Counted from the whole stretch's first letter, positions 10,784 through 16,140 are shown. The stretch is 58,988 nucleotides of DNA, filler included, from Dugesia japonica (GCA_001938525.1; 6 parts of 6 records of this genome joined end to end with filler, not necessarily neighbours in it); one strand, 5' to 3'. Notes: generated by a model not told the origin, from the letters alone. Numbers and translations are program-made.

Positions 10784-11850
10784 ATGCCTTCGGAGCTGCA
10801 CCAAGCACTGCACTTCATTCGCAAAGAAAGAAAAGCAACAAAATTAAAACAGCTTATAGGCCATTTCTTATTCCACAAATTAGTCGAACATTCGGACGAA
10901 ACGGACTTAAATTGTTTTGTCGAGATGTTCCTAATGAGGTTTGAGTTTGATCTTGACCAAGAAACGTAATTGACAAAATGAATATTTTTTAATAAATTCC
11001 TATATTTGTTGTTTTAAGTGCTATGTTTCATGACTATTTTATAGAAATTAACGGAATCTTTTTGATGCTAAGTAGTAAATGACCAATTGTTATTTTTAGT
11101 GGAATTCAAATGGGAATTCTTATTATATCGACGTACGAACCGAATGGTATTTAAACGGTACACGAACNNATTCGATAGGAATGCCGGAGTTTTCGCAGAT
11201 AGATCTAATTTATCGGCCATGGATGCGAACTACCAGTGACACTGGGATGCCACCGAACGTCAAGCTTTTTACGACTGGACCGGTCCCGACCGTAATCACA
11301 TAACGTTTTCTGCATCACAGTTACAACAACCGATTCGGCCGGCGCCCAGCATCATCATCGCGAGTAGAGGGAAAATACCCCTCACCACCTCCTCCATAAC
11401 ACTCACCCACTTCTCTAGCATTACGAAGATTGATCAGCGACATGTTGTGGATTTTTCGGGAACCATTACCAAATCATAAGCAGGAATTCGAATTAAAAAT
11501 AGCAATCCAATGACGACTATGCCGATTTGCATCGGAAAATGGTATAAAACCCCCCCGAAAATTAGAAGAAAAACACATTTTTATCTTACTTTGACTAAAA
11601 CAGCAACCCGTGTATCAGTANAAATATTTTGGAAAAAGAAGTTATACGAAAATCAAGAAACAATTTGTAAGCTCATTCTTGGCACATCAATTAATAGACG
11701 AAATTTATTCGGCCCTATAGAAAACAATTATTATAATCAACGACAAAGGAAAATTGACAGTAGAAACACTCTCGGCCTTATCATTCAACAATTTATTTTG
11801 AAAACAGAAAATCAAACCCGTTGCAGTTAGTCCTTTTTAAGAGTAAGCAT
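10784..11850 (+). pseudogene. Unknown multi-exon accessory gene of the LTR element, copy 1 (exon A 10784-10965, exon B from 11100)
   Basis: Exon A: FIRKERKATKLKQL..VEHSDETDLNCFVEMF, then GTAATT at 10966. After TTTTTAG at 11099, exon B reads WNSNGNSYYIDVRT/MVFKRYTN.FDRNAGVFADRSN..WDATERQAFYDWTGPDR. A GTAAGCATGTGTT donor-like site lies near 11843. It is paralogous to 13195-14256 and 15373-16140. Confidence 0.6.
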
Positions 11851-11999
11851 GTGTTCTGTTTCATTTATTTCTTTTATATGATTAATATAGTTTTCAAAGA
11901 TAATAAAACTTAATTAGATATAATTTCATGTNATTAATTTCTTTTATTTATCTTTATAGTATTTGTTGGGCATAATGATGTATTTGGAATAACACAGTT

Positions 12000-12600
12000 A
12001 TTACTCTCCCGATGATGTTAAGTTAGATCAAATATCTGCATTTATTTCCAGTATCTGTAATCCAACAGCATTGAGTTTCGACTGACAAGTCATCGCCACA
12101 TAAAACCGCTAATAAGAAACCAGATCGTGATCTCCCAATTAACTCATAAATGAAGTATCATTCTCAGAATAAAAACACCGTTTTATGCCGGAATTATAGT
12201 TTGACAATCACTGTTATCCAGACTGAGAAAGATAGGCTATAGTTACATGCCAACTCGGGTTAGGAGAGAATCCAATCCCTCGCCGCACACAGAATTAGAT
12301 CATGCACACACATCTGTGAGCGTAATTCTCTAGATGAATAGTCAACTTTTCTTGTAATCATTNTGTCGCGAATTCATCAGAGTTAATTATCAAATGTTGT
12401 TCATTATTAGTTGACTGATAAGATGTGCACAAATCCAACTCGTACACAAAGTTATTAAATTTATTGCTAAATACTTACACGATATAAATTGCTGCTTGCA
12501 AAATATTCTTATTATTACTGATTAAAGATAGTACACGGGAGATCTGCATTCATACCACGAACATCCGTATGAATATTAAGAATCAAGAATATAGTTATGA
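12000..12600 (-). pseudogene. Degenerate antisense ORF with a Cys-rich N-terminus, upstream of the LTR promoter module
   Basis: Minus strand reads YGCSWYECRSPVYYL..FCKQQF and continues in semi-open frames with scattered stops. Confidence 0.3.
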
Positions 12601-12754
12601 TAATTTGTAAAATAAATGAGTATTATTAGTAATGCTGATTTAAATTCATAAATATAAATAAAACTTTGTAAATATCGGTTTAATTAATCGAAACTGCCGA
12701 TTTAAATTCACAATGATTTTATAAAACTTTGTAAACAATTATTTCATTAGTAGT

Positions 12755-13140
12755 TATGTGAATGTGTGTATCCTGTAGAAAATCAGTATAAATACTGATC
12801 ATTTTAGTTAAAAAATCAGACTTTTTAATTGAGAAAACCTCTCCCTTTGAGTGGCTTACCTTCTTTAAATAAAATCTTGCCTATAAGTCTTAAGGTTACT
12901 GTTATTTGTTATACATCAAAAATAAAAGTATTGNNNNNNNNNNNNNNNNNNNNNNNNNNNNNNNNNNNNNNNNNNNNNNNNNNCATCAAAAATAAAAGTA
13001 TTGAAAAGGTATATCTTCATTTATTTATATAAGAGACAACATACATATATTACACTAATTATACTTTTGATTAATAATATACTTTATATAGTATTTGTAC
13101 TTACATACGAAATTAACACACCTCTATAACAACAAAGAAA
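12755..13140 (+). promoter_or_regulatory. LTR promoter/R-U5-like module, copy 1
   Basis: CAGTATAAATACTGA (TATA) is followed by cagactt, tttgagtggc, aaaataaa and aaggtatat in the same order as at 16845-17216. Confidence 0.6.
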
Positions 13141-13194
13141 TTAAATAAATTTTNNNNNNNNNNNNNNNNNNNNNNNNNNNNNNNNNNNNAACAG

Positions 13195-14256
13195 AATGAT
13201 TGAGTTTATCCAACCACCTATTTGTTTGATTCGAAAACAACGCCAGACAGCTAAACTAAAAAACAATTGTTGAATCACCTTTTATCCCGCGGCAAGGTCG
13301 AGCATCCCGACGAGACTGATTTACAGTGTTTCGTCGAGATGTTCCCTGTAAATTTCCAGTGGAAATAGATGCTGAAAATTAAAAATATTATATTGGTTGT
13401 TTCTATAAAATAAATAATAGACCAGTGGTTTTGATAGCTAAATCTCGTATTGCATTAATTTGTATGTATTATTATAAATTTCGATGCTATTCAATAGATA
13501 CCATTTTATTTTTATAGTGAATCATAAGTGGGAAATCCTACTTGACCAAAGGACCGGTCGTACTATATAAAAATCCGTACGATCGAAATGCCGGTGTCCT
13601 AGTAGATTGAGCAAATGTGTCGGTTGAGACTGCAGAAGAAGAAAGAGAATGAGATGCGAACGCCTATTACAACTGGAATGGGCCTGACTGCACGCGTGCA
13701 ATCTATCATTCGATTACAACTACCCTGTTAAGTGCTAGCAGGGAGCCACAGATCACCCAGGAATGGCACGAAGGTCCATCAGCCGTGAGCATCATCACGA
13801 ATCTTCTCACTGCTAGTCACAATTTAACGGCCTTTGTCCATGATAATTTATGGAGCATAAGGAATACATCCGATAACAGTAGTGATGAGACTGTAGCCTC
13901 GACTCCAATTAATTCATGAGCATGTGTTGTTATTATAACCTCTTTCGTGTTTTAATAAATATTATTAGTCTTCTTAATTGTCTTAATAATAAATGCTTGC
14001 GTTAAGATCTTTCAATTCATTATAATGTTAAATAAGATATAACATTGCTTTGTTTTTAATTAATTGCTCTAGCTTTTAAAACTTATTAACCAATAAACTT
14101 CGTTTTAAAGTGCATTCTTCTCTTAATCGCTCCACGGTGCCCACAAAGAAAATAAGAGACGGTAGCGAGGATCCCGAAATGACATGGGACCTCTATCGTC
14201 TTGAAATCAGAATTTAGTGGGCAGCCAAGAAATTTACGATTAACAATAATCTCGTT
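13195..14256 (+). pseudogene. Unknown multi-exon accessory gene, copy 2 (exons A ~13195-13370, B 13518-~13916, C ~14095-14256)
   Basis: Exon A: LIRKQRQTAKLKT..VEHPDETDLQCFVEMF. Exon B after TTTATAG: SGKSY..DQRTG..NPYDRNAGVLVD*AN..AYYNWNGPD. Exon C: DPEMTWDLYRL. Confidence 0.6.
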
Positions 14257-14619
14257 NNNNNNNNNNNNNNNNNNNNNNNNNNNNNNNNNNNNNNNNNNNN
14301 NNNNNNNNNATGTATTCGTGTGAATATAAAAGAGCACAATAAATTATCTTAACTGAATTTTTGGTTTAATTTATTTTTGAGGAAAATATGCTATCTATTT
14401 AGTTCATAATTTGATCTCTGAGAATGAATGTTTAACTAATTACCCAGTTATTTTTAAGAAATATATAATAGTTACCTAACTGATAAGTTAATTATTAGTA
14501 AATAAGCTATTNNNNNNNNNNNNNNNNNNNNNNNNNNNNNNNNNNNNNNNNNNNNNNNNNNNNNNNNNNNNNNNNNNNNNNNNNNNNNNNNNNNNNNNNN
14601 NNNNNNNNNNNNNNNNNTA

Positions 14620-15370
14620 TAATCCGATTTCATATTCAGAGTTCGCAGTATTAAAATTCCAACACGTGAATGTCTATCTTGAGCGCGAGTTAACAATTGT
14701 CAAGAAGATAGTGCTGACGTAAAATTATTTTTATTATAAGCGCTATGATCAGCAGTTCCGATGATTCAATCAATATCTGATGTAAATCCGCAGTGAAACG
14801 GTTTATCGATGTCATGATTATCTCCTTCCACGTAGTAGATATTTTTGCAAAGTATTCGGCATGTAAGTCGCAAACAACAGAGGACACACAATTTGACAAC
14901 GGTGTGTGTTAGTGTTTTTTGTTTTTGTCTGCATCCAGATAGATGACTAATTCGGCTAGTACTTTTGGTTGTTTATATCTGCGCCACACATTGCATAGAT
15001 AGCGAAGACGAACTTGAGTAACGATTGTTTACTTGGCAGACAATTATGGACTTTTATAGATAAATAATAATGTCGGTATTACCCTTTTCCAATATAAAAT
15101 ACAACAATCACATTTTTTATCAATATCTTTATTCGTAATAGCCTTAAAATTATTTGCTGCAAACCCTGTCAATCTCCATTATCGTTATTATTAATATAAC
15201 TATTTTGTTATTATTATCGGCATCATTAACATTAATTTCATTAATTAATGCTGTTATGAATTTAGTATTATTTCCTATCATTATCCGTGCGGGTATCTCC
15301 CGTATCACTATCGTTACTATACTTGATATTATCAGTATGATTACTAGTATCCTTGCGGTTATTGACATTG
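14620..15370 (-). pseudogene. Degenerate antisense ORF (Asn/Asp-rich N-terminus, then DKKCDCCILYW...VCDLHAEYF)
   Basis: One minus frame runs ~160 codons with only a few stops. It is head-to-head with accessory gene copy 3, the same layout as copy 1. Confidence 0.4.
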
Positions 15371-15372
15371 AC

Positions 15373-16140
15373 GTGGAATTTACCTAATTGATTGGAAATA
15401 TTCCAGAGTATAATTTTTCCGACCGACGCACCGGCGTAGTGTTTAAAAAATACACAAATCTCCACAACCGTAATGCAGGAGTACTGGTCGATAATTCGAA
15501 TATACCTAAGGAAGAGGTCGATAATGAGCGAAAATGGGATGTGGCCAAACGCCAGGATTTTTATACCTGAATGACCCCGACCGGACAAAATAAATCCTGA
15601 ATATAGTTACGTTACCTATTCTTATGATTTCACTGTGTAATTTTTGATACCCTTAAGGTTAAATCTTCTTAAAACATAGAAACTGGTTATGAGATCTTGG
15701 TTTAAATGGTGGCTTATATTTTAAATTTTTTTTTGGGTGTTAATTAATAATTAGACTCTCCTATGATGATTATATTTNNNNNNNNNNNNNNNNNNNNNNN
15801 NNNNNNNNNNNNNNNNNNNNNNNNNNNNNNNNNNNNNNNNNNCCAAGAGATAACATGGGACCTCTACCGTTTAGCAAAGAGTCGATGGGAAGCGGATGTG
15901 GCCACAGCTGATAGTAAGGTAAAACGATATTAGAAAAAATGCGTTGCCTTCCGTAAAGAGGCCGAGACTTCCCATGCCCAAGAGAGAATATGGAGAGGAC
16001 AAGTTAAGTCCCTCATAAAGATAATCTGGTTCCACTATAACTGAGAAAATAAGCTGGTCGATGACATCTTAAAGCTTAAGGGAAGAATGCCTCTTGAGCN
16101 TCTCATGCTCGATAAAGGGACTCAAACCTCGCGGTCGTGA
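15373..16140 (+). pseudogene. Unknown multi-exon accessory gene, copy 3 (exon B ~15373-15590, exon C 15844-16140)
   Basis: Exon B: DRRTGVVFKKYTNLHNRNAGVLVDNSN..RKWDVAKRQDFY. Exon C: QEITWDLYRLAKSRWEADVATADSKVKRY*..LMLDKGTQTSRS*, followed by AATAAA. Confidence 0.6.

Follow-up and report, generated by a model that had tools for sequence, protein, structure and literature searches.

Accessory genes in the U3 region of the LTR are a hallmark of complex retroviruses. The sag gene of MMTV, nef of HIV and bel/bet of foamy viruses lie in U3 or overlap it and are expressed from the 3' LTR by way of spliced mRNA. To our knowledge, an intron residing wholly within U3 is not a feature of any of them. Reverse transcription is expected to purge introns unless splicing is restrained.

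Metazoan Gypsy elements of the MDG1 group have small accessory ORFs of obscure origin, sORF1 and sORF2, which are under purifying selection. These are located before gag or after pol, their transcripts are not spliced, and sORF2 encodes a transmembrane fusogen (bioRxiv 2025.03.14.642691, accessible text). Errantiviruses express a third ORF, env, via a spliced subgenomic RNA (PMC4276936, accessible text). The giant planarian Gypsy elements Burro/GYPSM1 exceed 30 kb in total length. Accessory ORFs are reported for them, LTRs of about 2.5 kb or more are implied by arithmetic on a review's sizes, and the accessible part of that review mentions no ORFs within the LTR (PMC6431247).

We here consider a window of 58,988 nucleotides from Dugesia japonica, the whole stretch of DNA that was analysed, in which a sequence-only reading had seen an unrecognised, spliced accessory gene carried three times by nested Gypsy LTR regions. 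The assembly is fragmented (38 gaps), and DDE_1 transposon debris lies nearby. The features, all on the plus strand, are the following.

10744..10779, plus: branch point, CTAAC, with an acceptor-like TTTAG; the ATG of A copy 1 comes 5 nt later
10784..10969, plus: ORF A copy 1, an uninterrupted frame of 61 aa from ATG to TAA; a hairpin of two helices is predicted
10970..11099, plus: A–B spacer, AT-rich; GATGCTA at 11064 is a conserved heptamer, either a start codon or similar to a branch point; homology of B sets in at AG|TG
11100..11842, plus: block B copy 1, conserved core of ~66 aa and a variable, S/T/P-rich basic extension; stops at 11237, 11477 and 11828
11843..11959, plus: candidate short intron, GTAAGC to TTTATAG, ~19% GC
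12784..13193, plus: LTR module 1, TATA, AATAAA, U5-like; ends in or just after the 13154–13189 gap; primer-binding site absent
13196..13382, plus: ORF A copy 2, two frameshifts; AG 2 nt before the ATG; TAA at 13380
13518..13919, plus: block B copy 2, in-frame ATG at 13484, frameshift at ~13560, stops at 13608, 13650 and 13917
14111..14225, plus: block C copy 2, a shortened copy preceded by an AT-rich spacer
15373..15590, plus: block B core copy 3, stop at 15385, frameshift at ~15568; degenerate ATT-type low-complexity DNA upstream, no A
15843..16140, plus: block C copy 3, ~98 codons, stops at 15931 and 16042; KxTQT near the C-terminus (16114)
16141..17216, plus: LTR module 3, U3 with a 31-nt tandem repeat, TATA at 16868, AATAAA at 17013, end CCCAACA at 17216
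17221..17238, plus: primer-binding site, TGGTGCC, unique in the window at 17221; no tRNA assigned
17698..19733, plus: broken extended gag, Retrotrans_gag, one degenerate zinc knuckle and a coiled-coil-like stretch; ends at a gap

Homology and constraint of the blocks

The motifs of blocks A, B and C and the splice-like motifs were all found where the sequence-only reading had placed them. A (copies 1 and 2), B (copies 1 to 3) and C (copies 2 and 3) are homologous coding sequence, since synonymous sites are saturated (pS ~0.8) while pN is ~0.25; for A1 versus A2 the values are 0.78 and 0.23. At the protein level, the pairs A1/A2, B1/B3, B1/B2 and B2/B3 exceed shuffled sequences by far (z 14, 29, 12 and 10, respectively). 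The likeness of C2 and C3 holds for DNA (37/50 identical, score 43 versus a shuffled maximum of 26) but is weak for protein (9 aa, z 4; phmmer iE 0.3–0.6). A dN/dS near 1 had been named as fatal to the idea; pN/pS is 0.16–0.33 in all five block comparisons, in blocks that had been picked for conservation, which supports past purifying selection.

Three full gene copies, however, are not there. No copy has A, B and C together: block A in copy 3 and block C in copy 1 were undetectable. The spacer DNA had been described as diverged, which does not apply to the 3' end of the A–B spacer, where the copies align. A transition from copy 3 to gag without obvious break had also been claimed; it stands for 15843–17355, which has no N gap, but a 65-N gap separates B3 from C3. 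Another gap, of 36 N, sits at the junction of LTR module 1 and copy 2.

Block B of copy 1 proved longer than described, its frame running for ~250 codons up to a canonical donor. Three stops in 260 codons compare with ~12 expected (P 0.0005), and between 11480 and 11827 there are none versus 8.7 expected. Among 1.84 billion representative proteins B has a single true homologue, the unnamed protein P0001 (E 3.7e-17; 31/66 identical to B1, including an M at position 1 added by the tool). Homology of B sets in at the AG|TG codon in copies 1 and 2 as well as in P0001; copy 3 has no AG before its GTG. P0002 and P0003 were discarded as B homologues, being repeat proteins with short local matches only.

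The sequence-only reading did not recognise the protein, and neither did we: A, B and C have no Pfam, PDB or fold assignment. In Pfam nothing reaches the cut-off for the blocks or P0001, and PDB sequence searches gave a best E of 0.33–1.1 or none. Alignment searches with B retained 0/3174 and 0/1096 candidates, the gag homology search 0/397, and exact sequence look-up matched 0/8. Viral contigs searched with A, the A pattern, gag and P0001, as well as metagenome contigs, gave no match, Rfam yielded 0 matches and an Atlas search no usable one. The AF2 model of A1 (pLDDT 70; helices 3–35 and 39–60) has no Foldseek match, and structure comparison returned only generic helical hairpins (Z ≤7.2, identity ≤15%). 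The model of B, with a pLDDT of 35, is unusable.

No transmembrane or hydrophobic segment is present in A, the B core or C. The 19-residue hydropathy maxima are 0.36 for A1, 0.86 for B1, 1.22 for B2 and 0.55 for C3. The B3 frame reaches 2.63 in the low-complexity DNA upstream; a transmembrane N-terminus of B3 was rejected, as this frame is a degenerate ATT repeat that is missing in copies 1 and 2 and P0001. The blocks thus differ from MDG1 sORF2 in having no hydrophobic segment, and they do not show the single transmembrane helix with polybasic tail of sORF2/FAST-like proteins; small size, obscure origin and purifying selection are what they share with the MDG1 sORFs. In contrast to errantivirus env, as described in the accessible sources, they are far shorter, apparently in the LTR and free of a signal peptide, a hydrophobic anchor or a Pfam/PDB match to an F-type glycoprotein; the spliced subgenomic RNA would be the common trait. 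MMTV sag, HIV nef and foamy virus bel/bet are retroviral, and no sequence or fold similarity of the blocks to them was found.

The LTR/gag element and the place of the blocks

A shared TATA module downstream of copies 1 and 3 had been reported, and it is there, 0.94 kb from 11843 and 0.73 kb from 16140. The two LTR modules align up to 13149/17176 with a score of 122 (shuffled 74 ± 10), and CAGTATAAATA occurs in the window at 12784 and 16865 only. LTR module 3 has the TATA, polyA signal and CA end of a Ty3/Gypsy LTR, and a tRNA primer-binding site comes after it; RNA reads of other copies (n = 9) diverge behind 17218. As claimed, copy 3 leads on to the primer-binding site, from 17221, and then to gag. 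PF03732 Retrotrans_gag beats its cut-off (E 1.7e-5), zf-CCHC reaches E 0.13, and the gag region contains no intact CCHC pattern; a capsid-type domain plus a (degenerate) CCHC knuckle agrees with a Ty3/Gypsy gag. At ~19100–19370 a weak ubiquitin-like segment is seen (best PDB match a redesigned ubiquitin, E 0.2, spanning an 18-residue gap), with no match to a ubiquitin-like Pfam domain in gag.

Like Burro/GYPSM1, as far as the accessible text of PMC6431247 goes, the element opens an extended polyprotein with Retrotrans_gag and a zinc knuckle, possibly with a ubiquitin-like segment. Burro/GYPSM1, however, has two or three knuckles, where this decayed copy has one degenerate knuckle, and of its MATH, BIR, BCL2, in-frame env and pol domains none is found in this window, where the element breaks off at 19733. 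The element may be Burro-like.

That the blocks are tied to a Gypsy-type LTR/PBS/gag element at this locus is supported. They could instead belong to a host multigene family or to another transposon trapped in a nest of LTRs, and the gaps, the DDE_1 debris and the derivation of the linkage from one locus leave room for this. Yet all three copies share strand and order with the LTR modules, the distance to TATA is similar in two diverged copies, and A, B and C occur nowhere else in the 59 kb. We consider this alternative very improbable.

The simplest reading, and a likely one, places the cassette inside U3, because B and C precede the LTR and then the primer-binding site, and no pol or integrase remnant lies upstream. 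Pfam domains of pol or integrase are missing from 12/12 frames of 5000–10713 and 19834–20774, from the six frames of 14620–15101 and from the three plus-strand frames of 11960–12351. A, B and C would then be decayed accessory coding sequences within the unusually long U3 of an abundant Gypsy-type retrotransposon. The LTR of copy 1 would measure at least 2.4 kb, which would resemble the multi-kb LTRs and accessory ORFs of Burro/GYPSM1 (PMC6431247, accessible text), and the locus would combine three old subfamilies, represented by a solo LTR, by a truncated one and by a 5' LTR that leads into gag.

LTR homology is detectable over the last 0.4–0.7 kb only; upstream of ~12450 the U3 of copy 1 shows no alignment to that of copy 3 (score 57 versus shuffled 52 ± 8). 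This fits the main alternative, which we consider somewhat less probable: accessory ORFs in an env-like, 3'-internal position upstream of an LTR of 1.2–1.5 kb, with at most C in U3. Copy 3 would then represent two elements sharing one LTR through recombination or nested insertion, hence the primer-binding site and gag next to it. Insect elements with extra ORFs downstream of pol are known (bioRxiv 2025.03.14.642691, accessible text), and the sequencing depth of the A core is, by a rough estimate, similar in magnitude to that of gag and not evidently higher. TGTTGGG (11964) and CCCAACA (17210), each found once in the window, form one candidate pair of inverted termini, with TTTGGG at the roughly aligned 15732. 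Taken as LTR termini, they would leave A and B outside the LTR. But TGTTGGG is expected ~0.7 times per window by chance, as estimated from base composition, the alignment at 15732 is marginal (score 39 versus a shuffled maximum of 37), no such motif precedes C2, and a purine tract before 11964 is absent. Moreover, three separate 3' fragments would be required, none with a pol remnant.

No purine tract followed by TG was found at a position common to the copies. The purine runs at 12262 and 16078 were dismissed as polypurine tracts, as the expected terminus does not come next, and so was homology of 10004–10608 to 14618–15400 (score 56 versus a shuffled maximum of 64).

Proposed splicing and observed expression

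The splice-like motifs are present but common: GTAATT occurs 0.8 times and TTTT[AT]AG 0.5 times per kb of the window. Sharing of AGCATGTGTT (11843 and 13916) is no more than chance predicts over 300-nt windows (P 0.32); its one notable aspect is the position at the B/spacer boundary (P 0.0075 with 60-nt windows set post hoc). There the B frames of copies 1 and 2 stop and GC falls to ~20%; in copy 2 the GT at 13916 is missing. The branch point/acceptor/ATG pattern before A1, likewise defined post hoc, has no other match on either strand of the window than here (two overlapping matches) and at 51021.

The sequence-only reading had joined A, B and C as exons of a single gene in U3, which we consider unlikely. 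Copy 2 does keep their order and strand, with AT-rich spacers of 117–195 nt. By its score GTAATT at 10966 qualifies as a donor, a phase-2 GTAA donor by itself creates an in-frame TAA, and the AG at 13496–97 of copy 2 is compatible with such a donor. However, the misfit already conceded for copy 1 is real (A donor phase 2, B acceptor phase 1) and the clashing acceptor is conserved, copy 2 has no GT at the site matching the A donor, and A closes with an in-frame TAA in both copies. Donor-type motifs scoring as high as that of A occur 1.6 times per kb, and in no copy are all three blocks recognisable and the sites intact. Nor did the proposed RNA check reveal a GT-AG joint among the 15 listed of 67 joints, a check of low power; raw RNA reads (n = 164 + 9) support none of the 15, and no junction read was seen for the candidate intron 11843..11959. 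An intron from B to C and an acceptor before A, both of which we infer, are better supported than an A–B intron.

Separate, unspliced ORFs with their own ATGs, translated by leaky scanning or reinitiation as in MDG1 elements, would make the spacers intergenic; we regard this as quite improbable. The ATG in the conserved heptamer, 33–34 nt upstream of B in copies 1 and 2 and, in copy 2, in the frame of B, could serve B as a start codon with no need of an intron, splice-like motifs are frequent, and MDG1 sORF transcripts are unspliced (bioRxiv 2025.03.14.642691, accessible text). But P0001 begins at AG|TG rather than 11 codons earlier, C2 and C3 have no common ATG in the sequence at hand, and ORFs so close to the 3' end of a long RNA, or else upstream of TATA, would be badly placed for scanning.

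We therefore prefer an accessory cassette in a long U3 with subgenomic splicing and with A apart from B–C, at a probability of about 0.38. With the inferred promoter downstream of the cassette, sense genomic RNA would carry the 3' LTR copy only, and expression would start from there. Splicing to the acceptor before the ATG of A would yield a separate helical protein of 61 aa. A second acceptor, AG|TG, would open B, and the short intron would then link B with C; the product would comprise a 66-aa domain, a variable linker and a helical tail with KxTQT at its end. As the introns persist in DNA, the packaged RNA would need to remain unspliced.

To judge from their homologous parts, which have neither a transmembrane segment nor an enzyme motif, the products would most likely be host-binding adaptors. 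By analogy, A might speculatively be a Rev-type export or splicing adaptor and B–C an LC8-dimerised trafficking or anti-silencing factor. KxTQT is unique across the six frames of the window and present in C3, the sole copy reaching the C-terminus; many TQT peptides fail to bind LC8, the anchor alone being insufficient (PMC6607443). The full picture, a high-copy, still transcribed flatworm Gypsy element that regulates splicing in the manner of a complex retrovirus, with a novel-family cassette in both U3s, a retained spliceosomal intron, a Rev-like protein and an LC8-binding factor, is rather unlikely.

If the U3 reading is true, a Gypsy element that retains coding exons and introns within its LTR would have evolved, independently, a control over genomic versus subgenomic RNA, and each solo LTR would deposit these genes in the host genome. 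Without family in the searched libraries, A, B and C are candidates for new factors of host interaction; the piRNA control of LTR elements is already under study in these animals. Merely 3'-internal ORFs would still be new small protein families in an ordinary architecture.

Relatives of A, B and C are abundant and weakly transcribed: A has numerous diverged relatives in sequencing runs, and a small number of poly(A) reads match A, B and C. In run X1 the A2 bin has a depth of 4865 and the C3 bin one of 1010, versus 12–15 for exact single-locus contigs, figures that are not copy numbers. Run X11 was discarded as expression evidence, since its even coverage of the spacers is DNA-like; its contig 11 spans the gap at 14257–14309 behind C2.

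None of six 8-mers taken from the blocks occurs in the probe table of PMC8532177, as far as it is readable. The probe for the planarian transposon GLT2 in that table (Table S1), in the first 400 of its 485 nt, displays by eye, on the opposite strand, an AT-rich GT..TTTAG|TG spacer. It parts two open frames of compatible phase, the second coiled-coil-like, and a faint, unscored likeness to block C can be seen (by eye, PMC8532177, readable part).

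Decayed coding blocks beside a Gypsy-type element

The blocks A, B and C are real, decayed coding sequence of no known family, and at this locus they are linked with an LTR element of Gypsy type. The window is AT-rich and fragmented eukaryotic sequence, likely planarian, with 38 N gaps. Every motif quoted for the blocks in the sequence-only reading was found in its place. In a six-frame comparison, the four best of 136 segment pairs were B1/B3 (block B of copies 1 and 3; z 29), A1/A2 (z 14), B1/B2 (z 12) and B2/B3 (z 10). C2/C3 (z 4.0) was outranked by two unrelated opposite-strand pairs (z 7.5 and 4.8), so block C is weak at the protein level; at the DNA level, 37 of its 50 positions are identical, with a score of 43 against a shuffled maximum of 26. 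A profile search of the window found no further block copies, and neither A in copy 3 nor C in copy 1.

As for substitution rates between the copies, pN (0.09-0.29) is below pS (0.58-0.88) in all five block comparisons, and most change is at third positions. This pattern shows coding constraint in the past; since the blocks had been selected for being conserved, it does not give the strength of that constraint. Within 260 codons of the B1 region, the frame of B1 contains three stops, the other frames 8 and 19. This shortage (P 0.0005 by shuffling) implies that B1 reaches about 11843. Block B also has an outside homologue, P0001 (E 3.7e-17); a search of 1.84 billion proteins gave three matches with an E of 0.001 or lower, of which this one alone is credible. 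It is an unnamed protein of 94 amino acids, a single-member cluster, from a 512-nt ENA contig.

TATA, AATAAA and U5 sequence are common to both LTR modules when aligned. CCCAACA at 17216 closes the second module; a primer-binding site (PBS) comes next, at 17221, and then a broken gag (PF03732, E 1.7e-5). The first module lacks a PBS and terminates at the gap 13154-13189, with copy 2 directly behind it. The gag frame runs on past one degenerate zinc knuckle into a weak ubiquitin-like segment (E 0.2) and thus resembles the extended ORF1 of Burro. The latter, however, carries two or three knuckles according to the available part of PMC6431247, which is why we call the element Burro-like only. None of the 12 frames flanking the block cluster contained a pol remnant. 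Tandem repeats are seen in the gag leader (17497-17635; 40 nt, 3.5 copies, with relatives at very high read depth) and in U3 (16718-16796; 31 nt).

Position and proposed exon structure

B3 and C3 lie upstream of the LTR that continues into the PBS, and U3 membership is therefore the simplest reading. The blocks probably reside in a long U3 (at roughly 55-60%) and are probably reached by splicing. On the U3 reading, copy 1 would be a solo LTR 2.4 kb or more in length, and lost pol regions would not have to be assumed. Against residence in U3, however, stand the heptamer TGTTGGG at 11964, which is exactly inverse to the LTR end (each occurs once in the window), and the fact that copies 1 and 3 cannot be aligned in U3. 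No polypurine tract was found to back either candidate LTR start. That U3 residence and a retained intron hold together is less likely than not. Upstream of copies 1 and 3, degenerate ATT-type low-complexity DNA is found (10004-10608 and 15150-15370); read as frames, both stretches are hydrophobic, and their mutual likeness is not significant.

The single gene with exons A, B and C, as originally proposed, is not supported at its A-B intron: a phase-2 donor meets a phase-1 acceptor, the matching donor place in copy 2 has no GT, and an in-frame TAA occupies the donor place in both copies (10967, 13380). A and B may nevertheless be fused by splicing, since a GTAA donor would itself create the TAA and an AG at 13496-97 would suit the phase in copy 2. 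A branch point and TTTAG precede the ATG of A, an arrangement (chosen post hoc) that recurs at one other site of the window, and in copy 2 an AG likewise stands just ahead of this ATG. The homology of block B starts at a common GTG in all three copies, the very codon at which P0001 begins; copies 1 and 2 have AG|TG here. The same two copies conserve a heptamer that lies 33-34 nt upstream; it could be a branch-point-like site or block B's own ATG. In copy 1 the frame of B runs up to GTAAGC, in copy 2 up to the corresponding boundary; GC drops to about 20% there. Taking the phase problems, the sites before A and B and the donor-like end of B together, we prefer a reading in which A is an ORF of its own and a short putative intron joins B to C.

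Two GC-richer stretches adjoin the copies. One (11960-12350) comes after copy 1's candidate intron, shows no match to block C and may be a replaced or strongly diverged exon; the other (14618-15150), between copies 2 and 3, includes a strong donor-like site (14863) and matched no Pfam family.

Reads, possible precedent and possible products

The read data come from one comparison (4 of 24 runs, 84% likeness). Contigs span the gaps 14257-14309 and 14512-14617; among the pieces listed, a minority of all, none bridges 13154-13189 or 15778-15842. In run X1, exact single-locus contigs have a depth of 12-15, while bin depths, which are no copy numbers, reach 4865 (A2), 1010 (C3) and 7,000-57,000 (LTR end, leader, gag). 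We read these as many relatives and nothing beyond that. Of the 13.6 million reads in the poly(A) run X22, 164 matched; 147 of these are below 95% identity, so most derive from other copies. Mean depths per bin were 4.9 (A2), 1.3 (B1) and 0.5 (C3). Run X21 yielded 9 matches in 10.5 million reads. Of 67 joints, none of the 15 listed has GT-AG ends or raw-RNA support, at a coverage too low to exclude splicing.

Literature searches, which drew on the available parts of PMC6431247, PMC8532177, PMC11410931, bioRxiv 2025.03.14.642691, PMC6607443, PMC4276936 and PMC13238120, brought up nothing on ORFs or introns within the Gypsy LTRs of planarians; Grohme 2018, Repbase and figures lay outside this scope and may show such ORFs. 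In the GLT2 probe, as far as its source gives it, an in-phase GT-AG spacer by eye separates open frames, a possible precedent.

The model predicted for A from a three-row alignment (pLDDT 70) is a hairpin of two helices that carries a basic stretch and an acidic loop; a fold search with this model gave generic matches only, and block B yielded no usable structure model. None of the homologous blocks has a transmembrane segment, and this speaks against both env and a fusogen of the FAST type. The products most likely bind host factors and are non-enzymatic. Rev, sag, nef and bel serve as comparison systems; by analogy, A might be a Rev-like export protein, an improbable guess. KxTQT near the end of C3 is the sole instance in the window; TQT is the usual LC8 anchor, often insufficient alone (PMC6607443, available part). 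A role of B-C in LC8-linked trafficking or anti-silencing is an equally long shot.

Other features of the window

~8630-8900, minus strand: decayed DDE_1 transposase fragment (E 4.9e-5)
21056-24795, minus strand: ShK gene, a 1038-codon stop-free stretch with 18 ShK domains; one further ShK domain in an upstream ORF
27494-28285, plus strand: 263-codon stop-free frame, no Pfam family at cut-off
2657-2811, 34101-34329, 39470-39545, 48519-48738, 57315-57524: dispersed short repeats (families D14, D16, D17) with two conserved blocks, possibly MITE or SINE
19834-20039 / 20307-20512, 27141-27265 / 28298-28422, 12914-12933 / 12984-13003: near-identical duplications, two adjoining N gaps; likely assembly overlaps
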